Shown piece by piece: positions 1,621-32,446 of a DNA stretch of 64,000 nt. The position numbers and the translations under genes are program-made. Origin of the DNA: Candidatus Nealsonbacteria bacterium. Its GTDB lineage: Bacteria > Patescibacteriota > Minisyncoccia > Minisyncoccales > JANBVM01. Where the stretch lies: positions 192,776 through 256,775 of the forward strand of contig CP179889.1 in assembly GCA_047456315.1 (NCBI GenBank), written 5' to 3'. Position 1 is the stretch's first letter, and each line of letters starts with the position of its first letter. The notes under the pieces were generated by a model. That model saw only the letters and a list, made by a program, of their open reading frames with translations, did not search any database and was not told the DNA's origin.

Positions 1621-1691
1621 CGGGGTGTAGTATAACGGTAGTACGCGGGCATCGGGAGCTTGTGGCCTGGGTTCAATTCCCAGCACCCCGA
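1621..1691 (+). tRNA. tRNA-Pro (anticodon CGG)
   Basis: Hand-folded 71-nt cloverleaf. Acceptor CGGGGTG/CACCCCG, D arm GTAT-AACGGTA-GTAC, anticodon arm CGGGC-ATCGGGA-GCTTG (U33, CGG, G37), T arm CTGGG-TTCAATT-CCCAG, discriminator A. The 3' CCA is not encoded. Confidence 0.9.
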
Positions 1692-1693
1692 CA

Positions 1694-1764
1694 GGGCCTA
1701 TAGCTCAATGGTAGAGCGCTACATTCGCATTGTAGAAACATGAGTTCGACTCTCATTAGGTCCA
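1694..1764 (+). tRNA. tRNA-Ala (anticodon CGC)
   Basis: Hand-folded 71-nt cloverleaf. Acceptor GGGCCTA/TAGGTCC with the G3:U70 alanine identity pair, D arm GCTC-AATGGTA-GAGC, anticodon arm CTACA-TTCGCAT-TGTAG, T arm ATGAG-TTCGACT-CTCAT. CCA is not encoded. Confidence 0.9.
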
Positions 1765-4339: not shown

Positions 4340-6064
4340 TTGGGTTTTGTAAAAATGCAGTATCTTAGCCAAAATGATTTAAAAAAAATGATTCTCCTTT
4401 CTTATGAAAGGATTAATAAAGAAAAAGAAGCAATTAATAAAATCAATGTTTTTCCAGTGCCAGATCAGGACACTGGGAACAATGTTGAAAAAACCTTATC
4501 TGGTATTAAAAAAACAATTGAAGATAGTGATTTCGACACTTTAAGTGATTTCACAGAAGCAGTTTTAGATGGAGCTCTGACTGCTGCTCAAGGAAATGCC
4601 GGTGTGATTTATACCGGTTTTTTAGCTGGTTTTTTGCCAGAATTAACTGAAAGAATTGATGTTAATAACTTAGCGTTGGCTTTTGAGAAAGGTGCCAAAA
4701 GAGCTAAAGAAAGCATTCAAAACCCGCAACAAGGCACAATCCTGGATGTTATTGATGCTACGGCTTCAGTGTTTAAAAAAGCATCTGGCAAAGAAGATGA
4801 TATTATTTCTGTATTTGAAAAAGCAGTCAAAAATGCAGACAAAGCACTGATTGAAACTAAAGAAAAAATGGAGATTTTGAAAAAAGCAAATGTGGTTGAT
4901 GCAGGTGGCCTGGCCTTTTTAATTATTTTAGAGAGTCATTTAGAAGCTTTAAAAGGCAGGGGCGGGGAAGCAAGGCCGCAAGAAAAACCCTCAGAAAAAG
5001 TTAAAAGATTTATTCAGATTATTTCTAACCGCTACGAAGTTGTTGCTTTAATTGCAGATCCTGTTTTAGAAATAAAAAAAATAAAAGAAAGATTAGAGAA
5101 ATTAGGAAATTCTATTGATATTGTTCAGGTTAAAAACAGAGTGAAAATTCATATTCACAGCGACTATCCTGACGAGGTAAGATCTGTTTTAAAGAAAATA
5201 GGAGAAATAAAAAGTTTGAGGATTGAAGATGTGACAAAAGAAATAGTTGGAGAAGAATCGATAAGAGCTGTGTCAGTGGGGCTTGTTACTGAAAGTTCAT
5301 CAATGCTTTTGTCTAAGATTATTGAAAGATACCAGATAGAGTTAATTGATTGTGAGAAGAAATTATCAGAAGAGAAAATATCAAATCAAAACATCTTTCA
5401 AAGGTTGAGAAAAAGAAAGATAAAAATTCCTGGCTTGACTTATAGGCATTATTTGAGTACTTTTGAAAAACAACTTAAAAAATTCAGCAGTGTTTTATGC
5501 ATTGTAAGTTCATCAAAACTGTACAATTGTTATGATTTAGCAATGAAAGCAAGGTTAGCAAGCTCCAACCCCCGAAAGATATTTGTTTTTGATTCATTAA
5601 ATACAGGAACTGGTCAGGCATTAGTTGTTCTAAAATCCATTGAGCTGACACAAGAACAAAGAAGTATAGATGACATTGTAAAAAAGCTTAAAAGCTTTGT
5701 TTCTAGAATGCACCATTATGTGTTTTCTGAAAACTTTAAACAAACAACCAGAGCTGGTAAAATAAAGCTCTACCTGGTGCTGCAGGTTAAGAACGGCAAG
5801 GTTTTAAAAACAGGAGTTATCTTGGCTCAAAACAGCACTGAAGCTTTAATAAAAAAGATTTTAAAAGAGTCTAAAAAATTCAAAAAAATCAGAGTGATAT
5901 TAGGATATTCTAAAAGTATTGAGGCTGTTAAAAAAATAAAAGATGGTTTGAAATCAAAAACTAAAGCTGATATTTCTTTTATGAATTTAATGCCTTTATC
6001 TGTTACCAGTGTGATAGGGAGTCAATCTATAGCTGCGAGCTGGACAGGAATTTTAAAAAAATAA
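4340..6064 (+). CDS. DAK2-domain fusion protein (YloV / fatty-acid kinase FakA-like)
   Basis: The N-terminus has the Dak2 nucleotide-binding motif VPDQDTGNNVEKT and GNAGVIY. The C-terminal half has a DegV-like start (VGLVTESSSML). The ORF-track start is TTG 4340 and ATG 4355 (MQYLSQ...) is more likely. Confidence 0.7.
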   Translation: MGFVKMQYLSQNDLKKMILLSYERINKEKEAINKINVFPVPDQDTGNNVEKTLSGIKKTIEDSDFDTLSDFTEAVLDGALTAAQGNAGVIYTGFLAGFLPELTERIDVNNLALAFEKGAKRAKESIQNPQQGTILDVIDATASVFKKASGKEDDIISVFEKAVKNADKALIETKEKMEILKKANVVDAGGLAFLIILESHLEALKGRGGEARPQEKPSEKVKRFIQIISNRYEVVALIADPVLEIKKIKERLEKLGNSIDIVQVKNRVKIHIHSDYPDEVRSVLKKIGEIKSLRIEDVTKEIVGEESIRAVSVGLVTESSSMLLSKIIERYQIELIDCEKKLSEEKISNQNIFQRLRKRKIKIPGLTYRHYLSTFEKQLKKFSSVLCIVSSSKLYNCYDLAMKARLASSNPRKIFVFDSLNTGTGQALVVLKSIELTQEQRSIDDIVKKLKSFVSRMHHYVFSENFKQTTRAGKIKLYLVLQVKNGKVLKTGVILAQNSTEALIKKILKESKKFKKIRVILGYSKSIEAVKKIKDGLKSKTKADISFMNLMPLSVTSVIGSQSIAASWTGILKK

Positions 6065-23250: not shown

Positions 23251-25776
23251 ATGAATGATGCAAACAAGAATTTAAAAGAAGGATATATATTAGATAAAGC
23301 TACAGGGAAACCCGTCGACTTTATCAAGCCAGAAGAAAAAGTAAGGCAAGATTATGAGAAGGTTCTATATGAAGATTATGGTTATAATTATAAACAAATA
23401 GACATAAATGTTCCAATACGAAGAGGGACAAAAAAACAAAAAGGAGAAACAGATTTTGCCGACATAGTTATTTATAAAACAACAGATAAAAACAAGAGAG
23501 AGCAAAATGAAGATGTTATTGGAATTGTTGAAACAAAAAGACCCACAAGGAAAGAAGGTATAAAACAATTAATGACCTATATATCTGCCACTTCTTGTTC
23601 TTGGGGTATATGGACTAATGGAAAAGAAATTGAGTATGTTTATAGAAATCCTAAAACTGGAGAGATTAAGAGAGATTTTATTTACCAAATTCCAAAAAAT
23701 GGTGAGACTTTCGAGACCATCGGAAGAATATCAAAAAATAAGTTAAAACCAACAATTAATCTTAAATTAATATTTATAAGGTTACTCAATACTCTTTATG
23801 CTAATACAAATATTAGTAGAAGAGAAAAATTAGGCAATGAGATGATTAGATTAATATTTTGTAAAATCTGGGACGAAAGATATGAACCGAGTGCCTTACC
23901 AAAGTTTAGGATTGGTTTTGAAGAAAAACCCAAAGAAGTAGCTAAGAGAATTAAAGAATTATTTGAAGATGTAAAAGGTGAGCTCGTAAGCGATGGGGTC
24001 TTTGATGGTAGTGAAGAAATCAAATTAGACGATAAATCCATTGCTTATGTCGTTGGCGAATTAGAACCCTATAGTTTACAAAAAACAGATAAAGATGTTG
24101 TCGGTGATGCTTTTGAAGTTTTTGCAGAAAGTAAATTAGTTGGAGAAAAAGGAGAGTTCTTTACTCCGAGAGAAGTTGTTAAGACGGCAATAAAAATAAT
24201 CAACCCACAACCCCAAGAAAGCGTAATGGACCCAGCATGCGGTAGTGGTGGATTCTTGATTTATGCTCTTGAACATATTTGGGACGTAATGGAAAACAGT
24301 AAAAAATACAAAGGGATAGTTAATTTAGATGTAATAAAGAAAGAAATTGCCGAAAAATATTTTTTCGGTATTGATAAAGAAATTGATTTAGTCAAAATAG
24401 CAAAGGCGTACATGGCAATTGTAGGTGATGGCAGGGGTGGGATTGTTCAGCAAAATAGTTTACATTTAGCTGAAGATTTTGAAGGAAGGGCAAGGAATTT
24501 ATTTGTAGAAAAAAATAAATTTAAGAAATTTGATATAATATTAACCAATCCACCTTTTGGAAAAAAGACAAAGGTATTAGAAGAAGAAGCAAAAAATTTT
24601 GATTTAGGTCATAAATGGAAAAAAGACACAAGTGGTAGATGGATAAAAACAAAAGACACAAGAGACACAGAACCACAAGTATTATTTATAGAAAGGTGCT
24701 TTGAGTTTCTGAGAGATGGTGGAAAATTAGCAATAGTTTTACCAGAGACTTATTTTCATGCACCAAATTCAAAATATATATTAAACTATATAAAAGAAAA
24801 TAGTAATATAATTACAATTATTGACTTAGCCCATAATACTTTTAGACCACATAATAATGCAAAAACTATTTTATTAATTCTAGAAAAAGGAATCAAGCAA
24901 CAAAAGAAAATTATAATGGGTGTTGCAGAAGAAATAGGACATGACCATAATGGCAAACCTCTTTATAGATATGATGAAGAAAACCATAAGTTTACGGATG
25001 AAATATGGGATGATACAAAAACAATCAGAAAAGAATTAGACAACCCTTCAAATCCAAATAACAAAAATGTTTTTGTTGTTAATATAAATGATATTAAAAA
25101 TGATGTTTTTGTGCCAAGATATTATTGGAAAAAACGGATAGAAAAATTAAGAAAAAAGGCTAAAAAACAAAATCTTGAGTTTGTTCAAATTAAACAACTT
25201 ATTGACAAAGGAATAATAAAAGAATTTAGTGGGCATGGTTCTCCAGCGAGCAGATATAAAGGTAGGGGAAATATACCCTATGTTCGTGTTGCTGATATAG
25301 TTAATTGGGAAATTTACAAAAATCCAACCTCTTTAATACCTGAACATATCTATAAATCTGTAAAAGGCAAAGGAAGAGATTTACAAGAAAAAGATATTTT
25401 ATTTGTAAGAAGAGGCAGTTATAGGATTGGCAGTGTTGCGATGATTTCGAAGTTTGATATAAAAGTTCTGCTTACAAGAGAAATACATGTTTTTAGGGTG
25501 ATCAAAAAACATAATAAATATGGAATAGATCCATTTTACTTAATATATCTCTTTTCTCATCAATTAACACAAAAACAGCTTTATAATAAAGTTTTAATAG
25601 ATACAACTCTTCCAAACATAGCAAGGAGATGGGAAGAGTTGTATTTGCCGATTTCTAAAAACAAAGAAGAAAAAGAAACAATTAAAAGAAAAATGAAAGG
25701 AGCTTTTATCAAAAAATGGGAAGCTCAAAAAAGAATAAATGATCTAAAAAATGAATTTGGTAATTTAATTACTTAA
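23251..25776 (+). CDS. Single-polypeptide type IIG restriction-modification enzyme (PD-(D/E)xK nuclease + gamma-class N6-adenine methyltransferase + target-recognition domain)
   Basis: The N-terminus is an HsdR_N-like nuclease core (ETDFADIVIY...IGIVETKRP). The middle is an HsdM-type MTase (FFTPREVV, motif I DPACGSGGFLI, motif IV LTNPPFG). The C-terminal ~200 aa are HsdS-like TRD (IPYVRVADI...GDIL-type pattern KDILFVRRGSYRIGSV). Confidence 0.8.
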   Translation: MNDANKNLKEGYILDKATGKPVDFIKPEEKVRQDYEKVLYEDYGYNYKQIDINVPIRRGTKKQKGETDFADIVIYKTTDKNKREQNEDVIGIVETKRPTRKEGIKQLMTYISATSCSWGIWTNGKEIEYVYRNPKTGEIKRDFIYQIPKNGETFETIGRISKNKLKPTINLKLIFIRLLNTLYANTNISRREKLGNEMIRLIFCKIWDERYEPSALPKFRIGFEEKPKEVAKRIKELFEDVKGELVSDGVFDGSEEIKLDDKSIAYVVGELEPYSLQKTDKDVVGDAFEVFAESKLVGEKGEFFTPREVVKTAIKIINPQPQESVMDPACGSGGFLIYALEHIWDVMENSKKYKGIVNLDVIKKEIAEKYFFGIDKEIDLVKIAKAYMAIVGDGRGGIVQQNSLHLAEDFEGRARNLFVEKNKFKKFDIILTNPPFGKKTKVLEEEAKNFDLGHKWKKDTSGRWIKTKDTRDTEPQVLFIERCFEFLRDGGKLAIVLPETYFHAPNSKYILNYIKENSNIITIIDLAHNTFRPHNNAKTILLILEKGIKQQKKIIMGVAEEIGHDHNGKPLYRYDEENHKFTDEIWDDTKTIRKELDNPSNPNNKNVFVVNINDIKNDVFVPRYYWKKRIEKLRKKAKKQNLEFVQIKQLIDKGIIKEFSGHGSPASRYKGRGNIPYVRVADIVNWEIYKNPTSLIPEHIYKSVKGKGRDLQEKDILFVRRGSYRIGSVAMISKFDIKVLLTREIHVFRVIKKHNKYGIDPFYLIYLFSHQLTQKQLYNKVLIDTTLPNIARRWEELYLPISKNKEEKETIKRKMKGAFIKKWEAQKRINDLKNEFGNLIT

Positions 25777-25837: not shown

Positions 25838-26410
25838 ATGAAAGAAGAAATTCTCGAAAATATCTCAAACGTACTCACTAAGCCGCTTGAAAAAGAAAGG
25901 GTAATCTATTTGATGGTAGAAATTCGTAAATTTATTGAAAGAACCGAGGGAGAAACTAAAAGATGGGTTAATATAAAGCATTGGTGTGATTGGGTCGTTC
26001 ATACGCAATTAGATAGAAAATTTGCCATTGAGACGCTTAATTCAATGGAAAATTATCTTATAAAGAATCCCGAGAATAAATTTCAGTGGTCTGATTTTAA
26101 CAGACGGTTTGTTTCCTTAGAGAGCCTGCGCCAAGAGTTGTATAAGTTTCTGAAGGAAAATGGATTGTCGACGGACATAACTAATATCCCACCCTGGAAT
26201 GACTTCTCACGATTTTTAGCGGAAACACTACGTGATTGCCACCTCGTTAAGAATAATGGTCTTGTTAGGAAATTCTTTTTTTCAAAGAAAGAACATATTC
26301 CAGAGGCCCAAAAATACTCTATAGATTTTGAGCTTCATTTTGATGGAGGCAGACCAAATTTATGGGGCACTGTCCTTGGGTCTGAAGATGAATCTCAAAA
26401 TAAATCCTAA
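25838..26410 (+). CDS. Hypothetical protein (no recognisable domain) co-oriented with the RM gene
   Basis: 190-aa ORF, 61 nt downstream of the RM gene, with a terminator-like hairpin downstream. I can name no motif. Confidence 0.5.
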   Translation: MKEEILENISNVLTKPLEKERVIYLMVEIRKFIERTEGETKRWVNIKHWCDWVVHTQLDRKFAIETLNSMENYLIKNPENKFQWSDFNRRFVSLESLRQELYKFLKENGLSTDITNIPPWNDFSRFLAETLRDCHLVKNNGLVRKFFFSKKEHIPEAQKYSIDFELHFDGGRPNLWGTVLGSEDESQNKS

Positions 26411-26511
26411 TGTTATTTGTTTGACTTAGGGTAAGTTTAGAGAAAGATTAGCAATATGATTTCATCAAACAGGTTCTAACCTCGTCCAGCCCCCGGACCC
26501 AAAATTAAAAA

Positions 26512-26535
26512 GCCCATTGTCCTGGGCATTTTTTA
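26512..26535 (+). terminator. Putative intrinsic terminator
   Basis: GCCCA (26512-16), loop TTGTCC, TGGGC (26523-27), followed by ATTTTTTAATTT. Confidence 0.45.
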
Positions 26536-26553
26536 ATTTAAATCTTTTTAAAT

Positions 26554-27393
26554 ATGAAACTTAAAAAACTTATCAAACAATATCTTGAATATCTTGAGTT
26601 TGAAAAAAACAAGAGCGAAAGCACGCTTAAATCTTATAAAAGATATTTAGAATTTTTTCTTGATTTTGCAGGTAACATAAGAACTAGCAGAATTACTTAT
26701 GGAATGGTTAGGGAATTCAGAATAGAACAAACAAAAAGAGGTTGTAGTATTAATTATGTGAATAGTATTTCAATGTGTCTAAGGGCATTCTTCAGATACG
26801 CAAATGCTCATAACATCCCCTGTATTAATTTTTTAATGATTGAGCTAGGACAAAGACAACCAAATCTTGTTGTATTTTTGGAGCGAGGGGAAATAAGACG
26901 ATTACTTAAAGCTCCTGATACAGCAACCATCAAAGGTTTGAGAGATAAAGCGATTTTAGAAACTTTGATCAGCACAGGCTTAAGAGTTGGAGAGCTAGTA
27001 AAAATAGAAAAAAATCAAATAAGCAGAAGGAACTCTATAACTGTTATAGGCAAAGGAAAAGTGGTTCGGCTTGTGTTTTTGTCAAAAAGAGCAAAAGAAT
27101 GGATAGATAAATATCTAAAAGCAAGAGATGATGATTCTCATCTTCTTTTTCCTTTAACAAAGAGGTCAATTGAAAGAATGATAAAAGGTTATTCCGAGAC
27201 TGCAGAAATTACAAAAGATATAACTCCTCACACTTTAAGGTATTCACTTGCAGTAAATCTTCTAGAAAACGGTGCAGATATCTTTCATATCAAAGAGATT
27301 CTTGGCCATAAAGATATTGGCACTACGCAAAGATACTTGCATATTACCAATAAGCACTTGGAAGATATACATAATAGATTCCATAGATTATGA
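26554..27393 (+). CDS. Tyrosine recombinase / integrase (XerC/XerD-like)
   Basis: N-terminal SAM-like core-binding domain (YLEYLEFEKNKSESTLKSYKRYL). Catalytic domain with GLRVGEL (Arg), HTLRYS (H-x-x-R) and LGHKDIGTTQRYLH (His...Tyr). Confidence 0.85.
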   Translation: MKLKKLIKQYLEYLEFEKNKSESTLKSYKRYLEFFLDFAGNIRTSRITYGMVREFRIEQTKRGCSINYVNSISMCLRAFFRYANAHNIPCINFLMIELGQRQPNLVVFLERGEIRRLLKAPDTATIKGLRDKAILETLISTGLRVGELVKIEKNQISRRNSITVIGKGKVVRLVFLSKRAKEWIDKYLKARDDDSHLLFPLTKRSIERMIKGYSETAEITKDITPHTLRYSLAVNLLENGADIFHIKEILGHKDIGTTQRYLHITNKHLEDIHNRFHRL

Positions 27394-27460
27394 AATTAGT
27401 TGTTTTATATATTTAACTAATAGACAAAACTTTTCTGGAGAGTGAATATATAATCTACAA

Positions 27461-27865
27461 CTATCTCTCTAAATGATTCCACAATTTCCAATATGGATCA
27501 TTTTTCCAATTAGGATTTTCATGAGAAGAAGGAACTAAATTTAGCTGATGATAGATTTGGTCCTGTATATGCCATGCATTCGTCCACATTTTTGAGTCAT
27601 GAGGATTTTCATCGAGACCAACCTCCGTTAATCGTACAGGTAGTTCACCGAATTCGGGGCTTTTTATTGATATTTTTTTAATCCAAAGATTCTGAATTCC
27701 TGTTAATTTTCCATTTACATAACGTTCCAGTCTCGCGGGAGTATTAAATAGCTCAATAGAAACAGAAAGATTGTGAGCAGATAAGAGTTTTTCTAACTTT
27801 TTGCAGTGTTCTTTTATGAGCTCTTTATTGGGTTTATTTTCATATTGAATTTTTACATTATTCAT
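27461..27865 (-). CDS. Hypothetical protein (Trp/His-rich C-terminus), last gene of the minus-strand island cluster
   Basis: 134-aa ORF with no recognisable family. It lies 81 nt downstream of the 191-aa DUF4145-like gene. Confidence 0.5.
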   Translation of the reverse strand: MNNVKIQYENKPNKELIKEHCKKLEKLLSAHNLSVSIELFNTPARLERYVNGKLTGIQNLWIKKISIKSPEFGELPVRLTEVGLDENPHDSKMWTNAWHIQDQIYHQLNLVPSSHENPNWKNDPYWKLWNHLER

Positions 27866-27946
27866 TGTTTTTGTAATTTTATAATTAATATTTTTATTAC
27901 ATTGTAAGTGCTTTCAAGATAAAAATCAAATTCGTTATTCTATAGA

Positions 27947-28522
27947 TTATTCTAATCTTAAAAATGCCTTCGTTGTTTTATTGTGGTCAATATCCCAATA
28001 TTTAGGCTGATGCGGTACTATGGTGCCATTATTGACATCAAAACCAAAAACCTCTTTTTCAATTATTGCTAAGTCCTTTAAATTTTGTTGCGCTAATTTC
28101 TTGAAGGGAATCTTTGCAACTTTTGGATTCATATGATGTATATCGTTTCTATAGCTTTTCCAAATACGAGAAGACGCTTTCGCACAGCCATTTGAAATAA
28201 TCCTCTTTTCTAGAAATTCATTTATCAATTCTGTATGTTCTCTTTTTTTAATACTGTTTCTTTCGGCAATAAATTTAATAATACCTTCATTGATTGCATG
28301 ACTCATCATAACTGCACCAATAAAATAACCGTCTCGATAAAGATAAATACACTCAGATGACGCTTTCGAAAAGTAGTGTCCTCCAATAATTCCTTGATGT
28401 TTAACTTCCAAATATCTATTTATTTTTTCTTCGATCGAACTTAGGCATTGAGATTTAATACTTTCTTTGAGCTGTATTATCCTGAGTTGCTTCTCTATTT
28501 TTTGTTGTTTAGATTTCGACAT
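27947..28522 (-). CDS. DUF4145-like helical protein (divergent)
   Basis: 191 aa. SRIWKSYRNDIHHMN aligns with the DUF4145 hallmark of the neighbouring 224-aa protein (ALRQMGNIGAHAS), sharing a basic residue at -4, Asn, and His at +4. The preceding helices (GAVMMSHAINEGIIKFIAE) resemble the DUF4145 A-x-x-x-R-x-x-L-E helix. Confidence 0.4.
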   Translation of the reverse strand: MSKSKQQKIEKQLRIIQLKESIKSQCLSSIEEKINRYLEVKHQGIIGGHYFSKASSECIYLYRDGYFIGAVMMSHAINEGIIKFIAERNSIKKREHTELINEFLEKRIISNGCAKASSRIWKSYRNDIHHMNPKVAKIPFKKLAQQNLKDLAIIEKEVFGFDVNNGTIVPHQPKYWDIDHNKTTKAFLRLE

Positions 28523-28530
28523 ATTATCTT

Positions 28531-28634
28531 AATTTAGACTTTATTAACTAAACTTGCTTTTTTCACATCATTCCTCGAAAGTAATTGGGCTGTTACGAAT
28601 ACAGAAAAGGCTGTTTTGTAGGGACAATCCATTC
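28531..28634 (-). repeat. Island leader repeat, copy 1 (upstream of the 191-aa gene)
   Basis: The + strand ...ACAGAAAAGGCTGTTTTGTAGGGACAATCCATTC (ending at 28634) matches 30301-30334 ACAGGAAAGGTTCGTTTGTAGTGACAATCCATTC. The terminal 20-mer matches 19/20. Similarity at the TTTAGAC end is weaker. Confidence 0.7.
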
Positions 28635-29439
28635 ACATGATGTCTCCAAACATATATTTTAAGATAAGTTCACTTATGATATTGCCAATTATAACAACGA
28701 TTAATGCAACTAGTACGTACCAGAAAAATTTACTCCAAAAACTTTCTCTAGGAACTTGAAGCTTTCCTGCGTGTTGGCTCCAGTCGCCAATGCTTCCTTG
28801 AAATTTCTCGATATTACCAATAGCATATTTGGATTCTATCTTCCTAGCCTTCTCTTTTTCTTCTGGAGTAAATTCTACATCTCCACCTTCAATACCCTGT
28901 TTTTTTAATCTTATGGCCCAATCTAGAAGATTATCTTTGACTGCGTTTAATACTCCAGCTAGAGACGATCTATCGATAAAAAAAGAAGCTTTTGTTCTAT
29001 ATGGACCTTTCAGTATTTGATTCGCAACTGAATCGGAATATGGCATTTCATAACTACTCGACTTCTGAGAAAGAAGTTCCTCTATTTCTCCAATCGATTG
29101 TTTGGTTCTTCGCTTCGAAAGCATTCTTTCGTTCTCAGGATTTTTGTGAATTACTGGTATCCAACCATAATAAGGATTCCATGCTTTAATCTGACCATTA
29201 AGATTTCTATAACTTGGATATGAGTCGTTGTTTTTGTATCCTTCGAGTTCTAAATTAATCCAGGATAGAAACTCGGCCTGGTCTAGATCATTTGCTAAGA
29301 TTTTAGCTTCTCTTAGTAGAGAGGAAGTAGAAATATTTTCATCTTTGATGTTTTCAATAAGTTTTTCAATTTTTTTCATAAAGTATTCGTTTTCCTTTTC
29401 TAGAACTTCAATAGCTGACATCCTCGGTCTAGAACCCAT
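28633..29439 (-). CDS. AbiTii-like abortive-infection domain protein with a C-terminal TM anchor
   Basis: SSLLREAKILANDLDQAEFLSWINLELEGYKNNDSYPSYRNL matches my recollection of the AbiTii N-domain (LLRK-x-KvLA-x-xLg...W...ELnGY...P-x-YR). The C-terminal hydrophobic helix is FFWYVLVALIVVIIGNIISELIL. Confidence 0.55.
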   Translation of the reverse strand: MGSRPRMSAIEVLEKENEYFMKKIEKLIENIKDENISTSSLLREAKILANDLDQAEFLSWINLELEGYKNNDSYPSYRNLNGQIKAWNPYYGWIPVIHKNPENERMLSKRRTKQSIGEIEELLSQKSSSYEMPYSDSVANQILKGPYRTKASFFIDRSSLAGVLNAVKDNLLDWAIRLKKQGIEGGDVEFTPEEKEKARKIESKYAIGNIEKFQGSIGDWSQHAGKLQVPRESFWSKFFWYVLVALIVVIIGNIISELILKYMFGDIM

Positions 29440-29474
29440 GTTTTAAGGAGAATTTATGGGCTTTGAAGCGTGTC

Positions 29475-30149
29475 TCACTGATGCGTCTCGGTCGGATTTA
29501 TTTTAGACATAGATTGAATTTGTTTCTTTTGTTGACGCTCTTTAAATTTATCATACTTGCCAGTTAACGTGTACACGTAGTCACAAATTGCTATTGTGAA
29601 ATCTAAAACATCTCTTGCGTCTTGTTTACTTATATGCTTTTTACTTGCATGAGCTCCAATATTTCCCATTTGACGAAGAGCTTCTCCCCACTCTGCTAAT
29701 CTTCCATCAATGATTCCTTCAGTTTTTAATTCTTTTAACTTGTCTGGTAGGGATTTAGCCGATACAGCCAAATCAACACACAAAGATTCTAGTGTCCTTC
29801 TACACATCACACTACATGCTAAATTTGCATTAACGTTAAAACATTTTCCAGCCTCCTCAAGAGATTGTTTTACAGAGGTTGGTAAATCAAAAAAGTTTTT
29901 CTTTGGATAAGGCCAAACTCGCTCCAATAATCCCTCCTCCCATTCTGGATTATCTATTACTCCACCTATTTCCATCTCGCTAACCGCACAAATAGGTAAG
30001 CTACAAACCGGACATTTTAATAAGTAAACAACCAGTGTCACATCAGGTCCTTCATCAAAAAAACTAATCCCAGATAAAACCTCTGCACCAACTTTTGATT
30101 CACAGGTTGGACAATCAATAAATTTTATTTTTTCTTTTTGTTTATCCAT
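29475..30149 (-). CDS. Zn-ribbon + DUF4145 domain protein
   Basis: CPTC...CPVC cysteine pairs in the N-terminal ~50 aa. The C-terminal ACSVMCRRTLESLCVDL...LKELKTEGIIDGRLAEWGEALRQMGNIGAH...DARDVLDF is the canonical DUF4145 pattern. Confidence 0.6.
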   Translation of the reverse strand: MDKQKEKIKFIDCPTCESKVGAEVLSGISFFDEGPDVTLVVYLLKCPVCSLPICAVSEMEIGGVIDNPEWEEGLLERVWPYPKKNFFDLPTSVKQSLEEAGKCFNVNANLACSVMCRRTLESLCVDLAVSAKSLPDKLKELKTEGIIDGRLAEWGEALRQMGNIGAHASKKHISKQDARDVLDFTIAICDYVYTLTGKYDKFKERQQKKQIQSMSKINPTETHQ

Positions 30150-30200
30150 GTTTTATATTAGAGCTTTATTGAGCCTCTCGGTCTTCTGAGGGGCCCACGA

Positions 30201-30235
30201 GGTTGCTGCGGGGCTAGGACTCGAACCTATCCTAG
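30201..30235 (-). other. tRNA 3'-end-like fragment (T arm + 3' acceptor strand), a possible att remnant
   Basis: The minus strand reads CTAGGATAGGTTCGAGTCCTAGCCCCGCAGCAACC, with a GGTTCGAGTCC T-loop context followed by CCCCGCA, the same 3' acceptor strand as bacterial initiator tRNA-Met. There is no matching 5' half, so it is not a gene. Confidence 0.45.
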
Positions 30236-30334
30236 ATTAAACTTTAAGCAGCTCTGTTTTCTTTACTTTCTTTTTAGACATTAAACAAGCGCTTGTAAAG
30301 ACAGGAAAGGTTCGTTTGTAGTGACAATCCATTC
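30235..30334 (-). repeat. Island leader repeat, copy 2 (upstream of the 224-aa DUF4145 gene)
   Basis: A 100-nt unit, GATTAAACTTTAAGCAGCTCTGTTTTCTTTACTTTCTTTTTAGACATTAAACAAGCGCTTGTAAAGACAGGAAAGGTTCGTTTGTAGTGACAATCCATTC. It contains the perfect 12-bp palindrome ACAAGCGCTTGT (30285-30296). Confidence 0.75.
30271..30299 (-). promoter_or_regulatory. Putative promoter of the 224-aa gene inside repeat copy 2
   Basis: The minus strand reads TTTACA (30299-30294), 17 nt, TAAAAA (30276-30271). The ACAAGCGCTTGT palindrome overlaps the -35 element and spacer. Confidence 0.3.
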
Positions 30335-30398
30335 GTTTTCTGAATCTTCTCCTCACTATTTGGTTAGTAGAATCTTGCTATTGCGTAACAGGAATGAA

Positions 30399-30496
30399 GA
30401 TTACAGCTTTAGCAGGCTTGGTTTCCTTACTTTATTTTTAGGCATTAATCAGGCACTAACAAATACAGAAAGTGTTGATATTACAATTCAGAATTC
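30399..30496 (-). repeat. Island leader repeat, copy 3 (degenerate, no gene downstream)
   Basis: GATTACAGCTTTAGCAGGCTTGGTTTCCTTACTTTATTTTTAGGCATTAATCAGGCACTAACAAATACAGAAAGTGTTGATATTACAATTCAGAATTC aligns along its whole length with copy 2. By eye it is roughly 70% identical, offset by 164 nt. Confidence 0.6.
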
Positions 30497-30865
30497 AATT
30501 TTTGAAAAAAACAGGTTTGCTATCACCTATGAAGGAGCGAATTGCACTACAACAGAACAAAAAATTAATGAATTAAAAACAAATCATAATGTTATTTTTT
30601 GTGATAATGTTTATGACTATAAAGTTCCTCCTGAGTGCTCTGTGATTTCTTCTACTAAATGCAGCGATCTATAAGAGTTTTTAACAAAGAACAGTAATAA
30701 AGGTTTTCCATAGATAAATCACCGTATTTTTATTTGGTTTTCTAATTTTTCAATTTAATCTTGGGATTTTCGCTTTTGTAGTTTGACGGGGATTCCGATA
30801 TATTTTAAACTGAAAGTGGTCATTAAAGACAACTTTTGGTTCATAACTATGAAAAAAGCATAAAT

Positions 30866-30890
30866 TTAGGACAGGCTTAGCCTGTCCTAA
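30866..30890. repeat. Perfect 25-bp palindrome TTAGGACAGGCT-T-AGCCTGTCCTAA
   Basis: Read directly from the sequence. It is a hairpin or operator candidate 80 nt beyond the toxin gene stop. Confidence 0.8.
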
Positions 30891-30903
30891 TCTGTAATAA
30901 TAG

Positions 30904-30946
30904 GATTGGGATAAGCTTAACTCGTCCTAATTAGCTTATCCCAATC
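30904..30946. repeat. 14-bp inverted repeat GATTGGGATAAGCT ... AGCTTATCCCAATC with a 15-nt spacer
   Basis: Read directly from the sequence. The spacer contains CGTCCTAA, related to the TAGGAC half-site. Confidence 0.8.
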
Positions 30947-30971
30947 TACCATAAATGGTTAAATAAAGCCT

Positions 30972-31349
30972 TTATGATGTTAAAAATTTTAAGTATTCTT
31001 TTATTCTGCTTTGATCTTCGTTTTGCTTATCTCCTTTAAAATATATTTCAATAAATACAACCCTTGTTTTTTTTGGAAAAAAAGCGTAGATTATCCGAAT
31101 ACCGCTTTTAACTCCCCGTCCCTTTAAAGATCTACAGGCGAATTTTTTTAATTTACAAATTTGTATTCTTTCAGAGCAAAAACGAGGAATAAAAAAAACG
31201 CTTTGGTTGTCGTGTCTTTTGATATGATAAAGCTCGATAGCGTTCCGTTTAGCAACTTCTAAGTCTTTAGACAGAGTTCTAAACTTTTTATGCAGCTTTT
31301 TAAAATCTTTTTTAAATGTTAAGGTCTCCTCATAATTCATTATCTTCAT
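30972..31349 (-). CDS. RelE/ParE-superfamily toxin (Gp49/HigB-like)
   Basis: 125 aa. FKKDFKKL...LKGRGVKSGIRIIYAFFPKKTRVVFIEIYFKGDKQNED follows the RelE-fold pattern (K...G-x-SG-x-R-x-iy ... v-x-l-x-iy-x-K-x-d). It overlaps the upstream antitoxin gene by 20 nt. Confidence 0.6.
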   Translation of the reverse strand: MKIMNYEETLTFKKDFKKLHKKFRTLSKDLEVAKRNAIELYHIKRHDNQSVFFIPRFCSERIQICKLKKFACRSLKGRGVKSGIRIIYAFFPKKTRVVFIEIYFKGDKQNEDQSRIKEYLKFLTS

Positions 31350-32168: not shown

Positions 32169-32446
32169 GTAAGTTAGTCAAAAGATTTGACAATAAAAAT
32201 TTATCTTTACTGATAAAAGACAAAGAGTTTTTTAATAAACACACAAAAATTCCACAGGGTTTTAAACAAGTTATTAATCGGTTTTCCAAAGAGTTTTCCA
32301 CAGTTAACAGAAATTTTAAAAAATAATTAAATAATAAATAGATAGGAGCTCTATCCAGTTCTTTGCCAAAACAAATGATGGAGTGATGTGATGGAAGAGA
32401 ATGAATATATAATATTTTGAGTTGCAATCGAGCCTATAGGCGAACA

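Follow-up and report, generated by a model that had tools for sequence, protein, structure and literature searches.

A repeated small gene heads the modules of an accessory gene array in a Candidatus Nealsonbacteria chromosome

An element of about 100 nt that occurs three times in a chromosome of Candidatus Nealsonbacteria, one of the CPR bacteria, is, judged from its sequence, a protein-coding gene of the minus strand, 31-32 codons long, of which two paralogues are intact and a third is a pseudogene. Each copy heads one module of an accessory (defence) gene array, and fusions with truncated host genes indicate that the first ten bases of the small gene are a recurrent DNA breakpoint. Since these ten bases recur as a breakpoint, the small gene may mark a new kind of cassette boundary. 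The stretch of DNA analysed, 64 kb in length, is referred to as the window, and all positions are those of the window unless a locus on another contig is named. The features on which the argument rests are the following.

26554..27393, plus strand: Xer-like tyrosine recombinase (Pfam Phage_integrase, E 6.5e-34, plus a SAM_1 domain)
27461..28522, minus strand: next module after copy 1, with ORF191 (27947-28522) and ORF134 (27461-27865)
28534..28632, minus strand: small ORF, copy 1, 32 codons and a TAA stop, MDCPYKTAFSVFVTAQLLSRNDVKKASLVNKV
28615..28634: 20-mer 1, which in the minus-strand reading is GA, the ATG and codons 2-6 (MDCPYK) of copy 1
28633..29439, minus strand: cargo, AbiTii abortive-infection protein (Pfam PF18864, E 2e-41; PADLOC AbiTii, E 7e-45)
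29475..30149, minus strand: cargo, DUF4145 Zn-ribbon protein (Pfam PF13643, E 2e-22; weak PADLOC PD-T7-4 match)
30204..30236, minus strand: tRNA-3'-like stub UCUAGGAUAGGUUCGAGUCCUAGCCCCGCAGCA, T arm and acceptor-stem 3' strand, immediately following the copy 2 stop
30237..30332, minus strand: small ORF, copy 2, 31 codons and a TAA stop, MDCHYKRTFPVFTSACLMSKKKVKKTELLKV
30315..30334: 20-mer 2, which in the minus-strand reading is GA, the ATG and codons 2-6 (MDCHYK) of copy 2
30335..30382, minus strand: decayed remnant of the start of an LTD (lamin-tail-domain) gene (..ILLTK, two stops, GEDSEN / EWI), joined to copy 2 at GAATGGATTG
30394..30500, minus strand: copy 3, a decayed pseudogene without ATG and with an in-frame TGA (..STLSVFVSA, stop, LMPKNKVRKPSLLKL, stop)

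Pairwise global alignments of the element gave identities of 61-73%, with z values of 5.5-10.4 against shuffles. Copies 2 and 3, for which the original prediction had given a full-length alignment at roughly 70% and an offset of 164 nt, agree in 77 of 105 columns (73%, z 10.4) at exactly that offset. Copy 1, held to be their relative, is 66% identical to copy 2 (z 8.6) and 61% identical to copy 3 (z 5.5). The two 20-mers match at 19 of 20 positions as claimed, and their pattern occurs nowhere else in the window, that is, twice in 64 kb versus 0.02 matches expected by chance. They do bracket the DUF4145 gene, the AbiTii gene and the tRNA-like stub, and the AbiTii stop is indeed where the conserved block of copy 1 begins (...ATG TGA ATG GAT...); there the TGA at 28633-28635 abuts the ATG of the repeat (TGAATG). 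The stop of copy 1 lies 11 nt before the start of ORF191. An nhmmer profile found exactly three copies in the window (E 4e-25 for copy 2, 7e-23 for copy 1 and 1e-17 for copy 3) and nothing besides them below E 0.09; a peptide profile run against the six-frame translation of the window recovered the same three only (copy 1, E 6e-20). The palindrome ACAAGCGCTTGT noticed in copy 2 is present at 30285-30296 but falls within codons 13-16 and is a palindrome in no homologue, which makes it incidental, as is the promoter-like match seen in the same copy, for the region holds 14 such sites versus 14.9 expected and does not rise above background. A 17-mer repeat at 27438 and 32397 and an inverted 11-mer in ORF190 were both at chance level.

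The shared unit of about 100 nt had been recognised correctly as duplicated together with the gene modules and as marking their boundaries, but its coding nature was missed. The edges of conservation are the ATG and the stop of the small gene. Nineteen copies were translated, the three of the window and 16 from outside it; a frame of 25-32 codons was open in 17 of them, in one frame only, the other two forward frames containing 26-52 stops in total. The ATG is invariant and the stop falls at codon 26-33. The peptide, MDCPYKRTFSVFV..., has the consensus MDCPYKRTFSVFVxTQLVPKNxVRKxxLVKV. Pairwise differences at codon positions 1, 2 and 3 amounted to 0.24, 0.26 and 0.41 (column-permutation p 0.0013). 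When the sequences were aligned without reference to the protein, 0.29 of the differing codons were synonymous in the coding frame versus 0.11 and 0.14 in the other two, and amino acid replacements were milder in the coding frame than in the other frames. Indels preserve the frame, with 6 nt added in the divergent 'type 2' copy and 9 nt missing from L014_2007. The mean pN/pS of 0.42 also fits a coding sequence, although it is only moderate constraint, in sequences that are few and related. The frame is broken in one early-stop copy, one pseudogene and one copy with an internal deletion, so that the small gene is dispensable at some sites.

Constraint is unevenly distributed along the gene. In codons 1-13 pS is 0.27 versus 0.72 in the remainder, so that synonymous sites are approximately 2.7 times more conserved there, and the codons CGA, TCT, TGT and AAA show little or no variation. 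Copies of the promoter type have a purine-rich stretch approximately 10-14 nt upstream of the ATG. As for the product, one might guess that the basic peptide is a small trans-acting factor expressed with each module; the AlphaFold2 model, a single helix with a pLDDT of 74, is uninformative for 32 residues.

Searches with the peptide returned nothing from Pfam, NCBIfam, PHROGs and PDB sequences at E values up to 10 and nothing from PADLOC up to 0.01, and no relation emerged when it was compared with bL34 and CopG. A set of 1.84 billion representative proteins yielded only one real match, a fused call (P0121), and the family was absent from a catalogue of 5.8 billion proteins searched with a concatenated query. 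The latter absence fits a gene too short to be called and equally provides no independent support. In viral contigs the start motif gave chance matches only. The finding also illustrates that a 'non-coding repeat' seen by eye can be a gene too short for standard gene callers.

Nineteen further copies, 17 of them frame-intact, and one internally deleted relic were found on nine other distinct CPR metagenome contigs (nhmmer E 1e-15 to 1e-29). Within each locus all copies are co-oriented and lie 0.9-4.9 kb apart. The small gene stands ahead of varied, unrelated cargo, namely Abi, toxin-antitoxin and surface-protein genes, among them a Gp49/HTH toxin-antitoxin pair, HEPN_AbiU2 and SocA_Panacea, and no protein was common to the window and the first nine family loci. 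In L009, L014 and L019 the conserved block continues through the downstream 5' UTR into the signal anchor of the next gene, which means that breakpoints do not coincide with the small gene in every case. Neither an empty site nor a circular intermediate was observed. The DUF4145-AbiTii cassette was also considered as the mobile unit and was rejected, AbiTii homologues being found without the small gene in Wolfebacteria and on other CPR contigs.

In the window, the array sits between the decayed LTD-gene remnant and the convergent Xer-like recombinase gene at its far end. ORF191 and ORF134 matched no family, and exact-protein look-ups of the window genes found none on record; the AbiTii protein has a counterpart of 100% identity in a Candidatus Nealsonbacteria MAG. 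The recombinase is a Xer-type enzyme of 279 residues, at most 46% identical to CPR XerA-like enzymes. Among its homologues at 82-92% identity the flanks differ in every contig and one, that of L029, shares the layout of the array, with an LTD gene, cassettes and a convergent Xer-like integrase, 88% identical to that of the window, at the same end. Window positions 30206-30347 and L029 positions 4371-4512, which comprise the small gene and the stub, are 86% identical over 142 nt and have unrelated flanks. Between the window and L029 the cargo has been replaced around a conserved unit of small gene plus stub.

The position of the breakpoint is given by host genes that have lost their 3' parts. 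The small gene is fused, exactly at GAATGGAT(T)G, to what is left of LTD and amidase-like genes, their 5' parts. Compared with intact paralogues, the LTD fragments show identities of 92% (L028) and 84% (L020), and similarity breaks off exactly at GAATGGATTG, which codes for the EWI motif conserved in LTD genes; the amidase-like 5' fragment is fused in frame at GGAATGGA. The decayed LTD remnant of the window is identical in 30 of 48 nt to the LTD gene of L029 just upstream of the L029 junction (z 4.7, 0 of 1000 shuffles as good). These fusions bear out the earlier suggestion of an att-like recombination scar in so far as the 5' end of the repeat is a real junction. An att site of the hairpin (attC) type was not upheld by single-stranded DNA folding of both strands of three copies, which gave z values of -0.75 to +0.6 against shuffles. 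In Roizmanbacteria a CRISPR-Cas indel adjoins an LTD gene, and the empty site has 'two very short hypothetical proteins' (PMC6509639).

In the reading that we favour, with moderate confidence, the small gene heads the modules and its over-conserved 5' end would serve as a cassette joint. According to this scenario, the repeated gene, above all its first 40 nt or so, is the place where modules may be gained, lost and swapped. Most likely, copies would recombine with one another, and with sites resembling GAATGGATTG in host genes, by homology or guided by microhomology, catalysis by a dedicated integrase being less likely than homology-driven exchange. Against a joint it can be said that the LTD fusions could go back to a few old events and have been copied around later, that in L009, L014 and L019 conservation extends beyond the small gene, and that AbiTii homologues of other CPR lineages are without it.

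The small ORF and its promoter might instead be an expression head only, a leader or uORF that drives or tunes the downstream genes and has been repeated because modules were duplicated or acquired with it, without any part in recombination. An extended -10 promoter (TGcTATAAT) located exactly 17 nt before GAATGG in seven copies speaks for this reading, as do the position of copy 1, sandwiched within an operon between the AbiTii stop and the ORF191 start, and the downstream 5' UTR and signal anchor included in the conserved block of the three loci named above. However, a second promoter-like site, or a stub with a terminator, separates the ORF from the cargo in most copies, and because such a site or stub and terminator precedes the cargo the small ORF is probably often a transcription unit of its own. 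Moreover, a leader explains neither the exact fusions to truncated host genes nor the excess of synonymous conservation at the 5' end, and we consider it unlikely that the element is an expression head and nothing else.

A cassette joint might also be worked by an enzyme. In an integron-like platform the recombinase at 26554-27393 would insert and excise cassettes at a site within the first 40 nt or so of the small gene, and GAATGGATTG in LTD genes would be the primary (attI-like) or a secondary site. Such a platform would account for co-oriented arrays of cassettes of 1-3 genes with repeats of about 100 nt between them, for one exact junction position in at least three unrelated target genes, for the over-conserved synonymous sites of codons 1-13 and for an integrase at the array end in both the window and L029. 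It would also give a role to the 7-7-7 inverted repeat ACGAACA-N7-TGTTCGT, found at the 5' end of most copies but absent from both intact copies of the window. Yet the other nine repeat loci have no integrase homologue within 2-13 kb, the repeat is absent from the neighbourhood of close integrase homologues in L031, L035, L037 and L038, and the enzyme itself is of the Xer type and at most 46% identical to CPR XerA-like proteins. The junction is devoid of dyad symmetry and single strands fold no better than shuffles. A Xer/dif site was rejected on inspection, the junction GAATGGATTG/TC having no dyad partner and the 7-7-7 inverted repeat lying 16 nt further in, and dif-like 11-6-11 or 12-6-12 arms around the 20-mer match by eye at only 6-8 of 12 positions. 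A GTTTAAC/GTTTAAT-like string, to be compared with the inverse-core and core motifs of attC (RYYYAAC ... GTTRRRY), is present at the 3' end of the repeat, where the surroundings of a stop codon in AT-rich DNA probably account for it. A diversity-generating retroelement or retron was likewise dismissed, since no reverse transcriptase is present. We regard the integron-like platform as quite unlikely. Doubtful to the same degree is the broader proposal of an unrecognised cassette-capture system of the CPR (Patescibacteria), with its site in the start of the gene of about 31 codons, GAATGGATTG as docking sequence and the Xer-like recombinase as operator; if true, it would be a functional analogue of the integron built from different parts.

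The stub suggests yet another origin, in which an element that enters a tRNA gene (initiator tRNA-like) carries the small gene at its end, and small gene, tRNA 3' stub and terminator together constitute an attR, several of which were left by tandem integrations. T arm and acceptor 3' strand follow directly after the stop in eight copies, homologous stubs being found after the small ORF in L009, L011, L013, L028, L029 (two copies) and L036, and an intrinsic terminator often comes next, as in real tRNA genes. The CCCCGCA of the stub resembles the acceptor strand of initiator tRNA. A second tRNA-like motif (CAAACAGGTTCTAAC...CCCCCGGA), without the small gene, is found immediately upstream of the integrase and again in L011, L013, L017 and L020. 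However, neither the window nor the loci contain an intact tRNA gene that could be the partner, the stubs are diverged forms of a single sequence and not the 3' termini of local tRNAs, the small gene repeats more strongly than the stub, and the LTD junction is at the other end of the unit, all of which makes scars of a tRNA-targeting element very unlikely. The stub at 30204-30236 was called as a tRNA neither by ARAGORN nor by Rfam, even at E 10; the only tRNAs called in the window by these programs were tRNA-Pro and tRNA-Ala at 1621-1764, and ARAGORN made no call at the element, be it in the window, L005 or L008. A cloverleaf, or acceptor pairing of the 5' flank with the stub, was sought by eye; 6 of 7 pairs were reached in one locus and were not conserved in close homologues. 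A tmRNA was rejected as well, since neither ARAGORN nor Rfam detects one in the window, L005, L008 or L009 and no 5' acceptor strand is conserved; the conserved part of the peptide, its N-terminus, is moreover the opposite of what is found in tmRNA tags.

Finally, a non-coding regulatory RNA or 5' UTR with the open frame as a by-product, the original prediction's other suggestion (there as a shared regulatory RNA or promoter/5' UTR), is highly improbable: the repeat does lie upstream of genes in the same orientation and contains a local stem (AGAUU-N7-AAUCU) with one or two compensatory changes by eye, but RNAalifold gave -0.65 kcal/mol with 6 pairs and 0 compensatory, no Rfam match was obtained down to E 10, and three-base periodicity, frame-preserving indels and the conserved stop position all indicate coding. 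The Rfam searches covered the whole window at the gathering threshold, window positions 27800-31000 and two L009 stretches at E up to 10, and L005 and L008 at E up to 1, and returned chance matches only.

The genomes of CPR bacteria are tiny, few mobile elements are known from them and their defence is poorly understood. If an unannotated small gene, present in repeated copies, marks where their defence, toxin-antitoxin and surface-protein modules are swapped, it would provide a searchable signature for these variable regions, and the small-protein families would gain a new member. Accessory-gene shuffling in the CPR, possibly by natural transformation and short homology, would then have a model that can be tested.

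Several known systems share parts of this arrangement. As in genomic islands at tRNA or tmRNA genes, a tRNA 3' stub lies at module boundaries, a tyrosine recombinase is nearby and modules are in tandem; unlike in such islands, there is no intact tRNA partner, the main repeat is the small gene and one junction lies inside LTD and amidase-like genes. Defence-island hotspots and 'minimal mobile elements' are exchanged by homologous recombination between conserved flanks. Here, too, variable defence cargo lies between conserved sequences and differs between the window and L029, but the conserved flank is a small gene of about 100 nt inside the island and not a pair of core genes. With Xer-dependent modules (pdif modules, IMEX) the array shares a Xer-family recombinase and small toxin-antitoxin or defence modules, whereas sequence inspection revealed no 11-6-11 dif-like dyad at or near the junction and the modules are all in direct orientation.

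The resemblance to integron cassettes and attC sites (Vibrio VCRs, superintegrons) includes co-oriented, largely promoter-poor cassettes of 1-3 genes, repeats of about 100-120 nt, a cargo rich in toxin-antitoxin, defence and unknown genes, and a tyrosine recombinase that adjoins the array in the window and L029. In contrast to attC, the repeat is situated 5' of the cargo, encodes protein and forms no imperfect-palindrome hairpin, and an R''/R' core pair was not identified. The recombinase differs as well, being Xer-like, convergent with the array, located at its far end and absent at most loci. In class 1 integrons, short ORFs of the attI1 region (ORF-11 and ORF-17) enhance the translation of cassettes. 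Like these, the small gene is a short ORF exactly at the cassette junction that overlaps the recombination point. Unlike them, it has 31-32 codons and a conserved amino acid sequence, precedes every cassette, and often has a promoter of its own and a terminator after it.

The three copies of the ~100-nt repeat (28531-28634, 30235-30334 and 30399-30496) and the two direct 20-mers that agree at 19 of 20 positions (28615-28634 and 30315-30334) lie where the original prediction placed them, and the 20-mers do flank a DUF4145 gene, an AbiTii gene and a tRNA-3'-like stub. The 64-kb window contains two matches to the 20-mer pattern, versus 0.02 expected by chance. In global alignments copies 2 and 3 are 73% identical (z 10.4), in agreement with the ~70% judged by eye, copies 1 and 2 are 66% identical (z 8.6) and copies 1 and 3 61% (z 5.5). 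The three copies are the sole matches of an all-member family profile within the window and were also those recovered by a peptide profile from its six-frame translation. The observation was confirmed; its interpretation, as recombination scars or a regulatory RNA, is partly supported.

Read on the minus strand, the element begins GA-ATG-GAT-TGT. Of the 19 copies translated (16 from outside the window and the window's three), 17 keep one frame open over 25-32 codons. The element's ~100-nt extent is the distance from ATG to stop, the 20-mer runs from 2 nt before the ATG through codon 6, and the 34-nt distal block recognized earlier corresponds to the first 11 codons. The peptide consensus is MDCPYKRTFSVFVxTQLVPKNxVRKxxLVKV, and a divergent 'type 2' copy has a two-codon insertion. 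Copy 3 is a pseudogene because its ATG is lost and an in-frame TGA is present. Differences between copies amount to 0.24, 0.26 and 0.41 at codon positions 1, 2 and 3 (column-permutation p 0.0013), with a mean pN/pS of 0.42. When nucleotides alone were aligned, the fraction of differing codons that are synonymous is 0.29 in the coding frame versus 0.11 and 0.14 in the other frames, and the coding frame also has the more conservative replacements. Searches of Pfam, NCBIfam, PHROGs, PADLOC and PDB sequences gave no match to the peptide. Among 1.84 billion representative proteins a profile found one real match, the fused protein call P0121; among 5.8 billion proteins a word-index search found none. 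Evidently the gene is too short for gene calling. An AlphaFold2 model consists of one helix (pLDDT 74), which carries little information at 32 residues. Comparison of the copies shows the repeats to be paralogues of a predicted small gene that is not annotated and stands at the head of accessory modules. A 117-codon ORF with a GTG start (30321-30674, +) spans copy 3 antisense; it has no Pfam match, the reverse frames are closed in other family members, and it is probably spurious.

The window locus is a defence island, in which the minus-strand order toward the recombinase is SocA_Panacea-HTH, ORF125, the repeats with DUF4145 and AbiTii, ORF191 and ORF134. An annotated protein of a Candidatus Nealsonbacteria MAG, encoded on a 647,540-nt contig, is 100% identical to the AbiTii protein, which places the window in a CPR chromosome; T4SS-pilin and DUF5667 neighbours are consistent with that origin.

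Features of the locus (window coordinates, strand)
23251-25776, +, N6-methyltransferase/HSDR_N fusion gene, upstream of the array
after the fusion gene, +, ORF190, no family match
26554-27393, +, tyrosine recombinase, 279 aa
28632->28534, -, small gene copy 1, encodes MDCPYKTAFSVFVTAQLLSRNDVKKASLVNKV
28633-29439, -, AbiTii gene
29475-30149, -, DUF4145 gene
30332->30237, -, small gene copy 2, encodes MDCHYKRTFPVFTSACLMSKKKVKKTELLKV
after window copy 2, stub; stubs also in L009, L011, L013, L028, L029 (two copies) and L036, loci on other CPR metagenome contigs

Several further features of the window were recorded. The best PADLOC match of the 841-aa HSDR_N/N6-adenine methyltransferase fusion is a type II MTase (E 9e-87); a separate nuclease or specificity gene was not recognized beside the fusion gene. 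Two strong hairpins, AGGACAGGCTTAGCCTGTCCT and GGGATAAGCTTAACTCGTCCTAATTAGCTTATCCC, lie 3' of ORF125 (30972-31349, -) at 30866-30965; AGGACAGGCTTAGCCTGTCCT, the sole terminator-like site between 27.4 and 31.4 kb, probably closes the upstream transcription unit. The 17-mer GAGA[G/A]TGAATATATAAT at 27438-27454 and 32397-32413 (+) encloses the entire block of minus-strand genes reaching from ORF134 to SocA/ORF97, without extended similarity around it and with about one such match expected by chance on a rough estimate. Inside ORF190, AATGGATTGTC (26158-26169, +) is an inverted near-copy of the small-gene start and belongs to a 26-nt inverted repeat 77% complementary to 30323-30348; on a rough estimate chance alone would give about 0.3 matches of this kind, and the repeat, if real, would permit inversion of a 4-kb segment including the integrase. 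Between the stub and the DUF4145 start is a GC-rich ~55-nt spacer (30150-30203) containing GACCGAGAGGC; the similar GACCGAGA[C/T]GC occurs at the DUF4145 gene 3' end (29484-29494) and in L029 upstream of the third small gene. Rfam gave no match here. tRNA-Pro(CGG) and tRNA-Ala(CGC), with one base between them, are at 1621-1764 (+).

Scanning genome and metagenome collections with the 20-mer yielded chance matches and a real family, with L009, L011 (=L008), L013, L014, L017, L019, L020 (=L005) and L028 as distinct loci after deduplication; an integrase homologue later led to L029, and a protein match to L036. More diverged copies in the same loci were detected by nhmmer (E 1e-8 to 1e-29), giving 19 copies outside the window and one internally deleted relic in L009. 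Within each locus the copies are co-oriented with one another and with the following genes, at a spacing of 0.9-4.9 kb. The window-locus proteins have no homologue in the first nine loci, with which the element is the sole shared feature. Among the cargo of the other loci are a Gp49/HTH toxin-antitoxin pair, HEPN_AbiU2, SocA_Panacea, a HATPase/DUF4325 protein and numerous proteins that are secreted or membrane-anchored.

The flanks of the small gene follow a pattern. Upstream of seven copies lie a terminator hairpin and then a putative extended -10 promoter, TGcTATAAT, placed exactly 17 nt ahead of GAATGG; in seven copies, the upstream sequence is the 5' part of a lamin-tail domain (LTD) gene ending in ...(N/D)EW(I/V), at GAATGGATTG, with GAATGGGTTG as the junction in L029. 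The LTD fragment is 92% (L028) and 84% (L020) identical to an intact paralogue 1.7-2.6 kb downstream, and the similarity breaks off exactly at GAATGGATTG. In L036 an amidase-like 5' fragment (a motif seen by eye, with no Pfam family on record) is joined in frame at GGAATGGA; in the window the ATG of copy 1 abuts the AbiTii stop (TGAATG), and a decayed LTD remnant ahead of copy 2 matches the L029 LTD gene at 30 of 48 nt (z 4.7). These junctions show the first ten bases of the small gene to be a recurrent breakpoint. In L017 (6620-6660) the terminator-promoter module TATATAATATTTGCTATAAT, elsewhere found ahead of the small gene, directly drives an LTD gene that is cut at EWI and joined to the small gene. 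In the L009 relic (2119-2200) a promoter and the small gene's first 14 nt precede an internal deletion to the post-gene region, which has a consensus TTGACA-16-TATAAT promoter; this shows that the small gene can be lost with promoters retained.

After the small-gene stop there is either a second promoter-like site, TTTAAC-17-TAgAAT, followed by a cargo gene, or a stub (T arm and acceptor 3' strand), in many cases with a terminator behind it. All stubs derive from a single sequence in diverged form; that of the window ends CCCCGCA, which resembles the initiator tRNA acceptor strand. A second intergenic motif, CAAACAGGTTCTAAC...GTCC..CCCCCGGA, is located just upstream of the integrase gene (26468-26500, +) and at L011 6322, L013 2100, L017 6444 and L020 3036, preceding terminator-promoter modules in these four loci; it aligns with the L009 stub after the small gene and may be a stub-type boundary piece without the small gene.

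Exchange of modules is indicated by L029, whose integrase is 88% identical to that of the window and whose architecture is the same: pyrF, an LTD gene truncated within its second domain, small gene, ORF165, small gene with stub, HEPN_AbiU2, small gene, SocA_Panacea-ORF399-ORF73 and a convergent integrase. Window 30206-30347 (small gene and stub) and L029 4371-4512 are 86% identical, with unrelated DNA on either side. In L009, L014 and L019 the same heads precede differing gene combinations, but there the conserved block also takes in the 5' UTR and signal anchor of the gene that follows. In Roizmanbacteria a type I-B CRISPR-Cas indel lies beside an LTD gene, and the empty site holds two very short hypothetical genes (Chen et al. 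2019, PMC6509639).

The repeated small gene, above all its 5' end, would serve as the joint at which modules are gained, lost and exchanged. Homologous or microhomology-guided recombination is favoured because every junction has 8-10 nt of identity and no dyad, and usually no recombinase is nearby. Of the original prediction's recombination scars, the recurrent breakpoint speaks for the idea; single-stranded DNA of either strand folds no better than shuffles (z -0.75 to +0.6), and therefore the element is not an attC-like hairpin. An integron-like system driven by the recombinase is unlikely. The integrase is, by its sequence, an Xer-type enzyme; beyond five close homologues its matches are at most 46% identical, all in the CPR XerA-like group. 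The gene and ~50 nt upstream (26503-27391) form a block conserved at 82-92% across L029 and the integrase-homologue contigs L030, L031-L034 and L037, with different flanks in every contig (RM methylase/ORF190, GmrSD and type I HsdR, SocA_Panacea, UDG-like and others), so that it appears to behave like a module within a variable region. No small gene was found in the short contigs of its relatives except L029, and no integrase in the remaining repeat-bearing loci; the integrase-repeat link is one independent case, since only L029 has both outside the window.

Synonymous divergence is 0.27 in codons 1-13 versus 0.72 in the remainder. Every Arg is encoded by the rare codon CGA and every Ser by TCT, and Cys TGT and Lys AAA are invariant in all copies; the first ~40 nt would either have an overlapping nucleotide-level function or be continually homogenized by recombination. 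Most copies, the window's excepted, carry a 7-7-7 inverted repeat, ACGAACA-N7-TGTTCGT, at the 5' end, with no compensatory change across copies. The promoter proposed in copy 2 was not upheld, promoter-like matches in the region being at background (14 found versus 14.9 expected), and its palindrome is not conserved. A competing explanation is that the element acts as an expression head or leader ORF without recombination; alternatively, the repeats might be scars of tRNA-targeting elements. ARAGORN and Rfam found nothing at the element. Least likely is a non-coding RNA, the other option of the original prediction, as RNAalifold gave -0.65 kcal/mol and no compensatory pair for 13 family members.

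The most fitting description of the element is that of a new family of small genes that acts as a cassette boundary in CPR genomes. It fits no defined family; the overall architecture is akin to known cassettes and islands, from which the small-gene family at the boundary sets the present loci apart.
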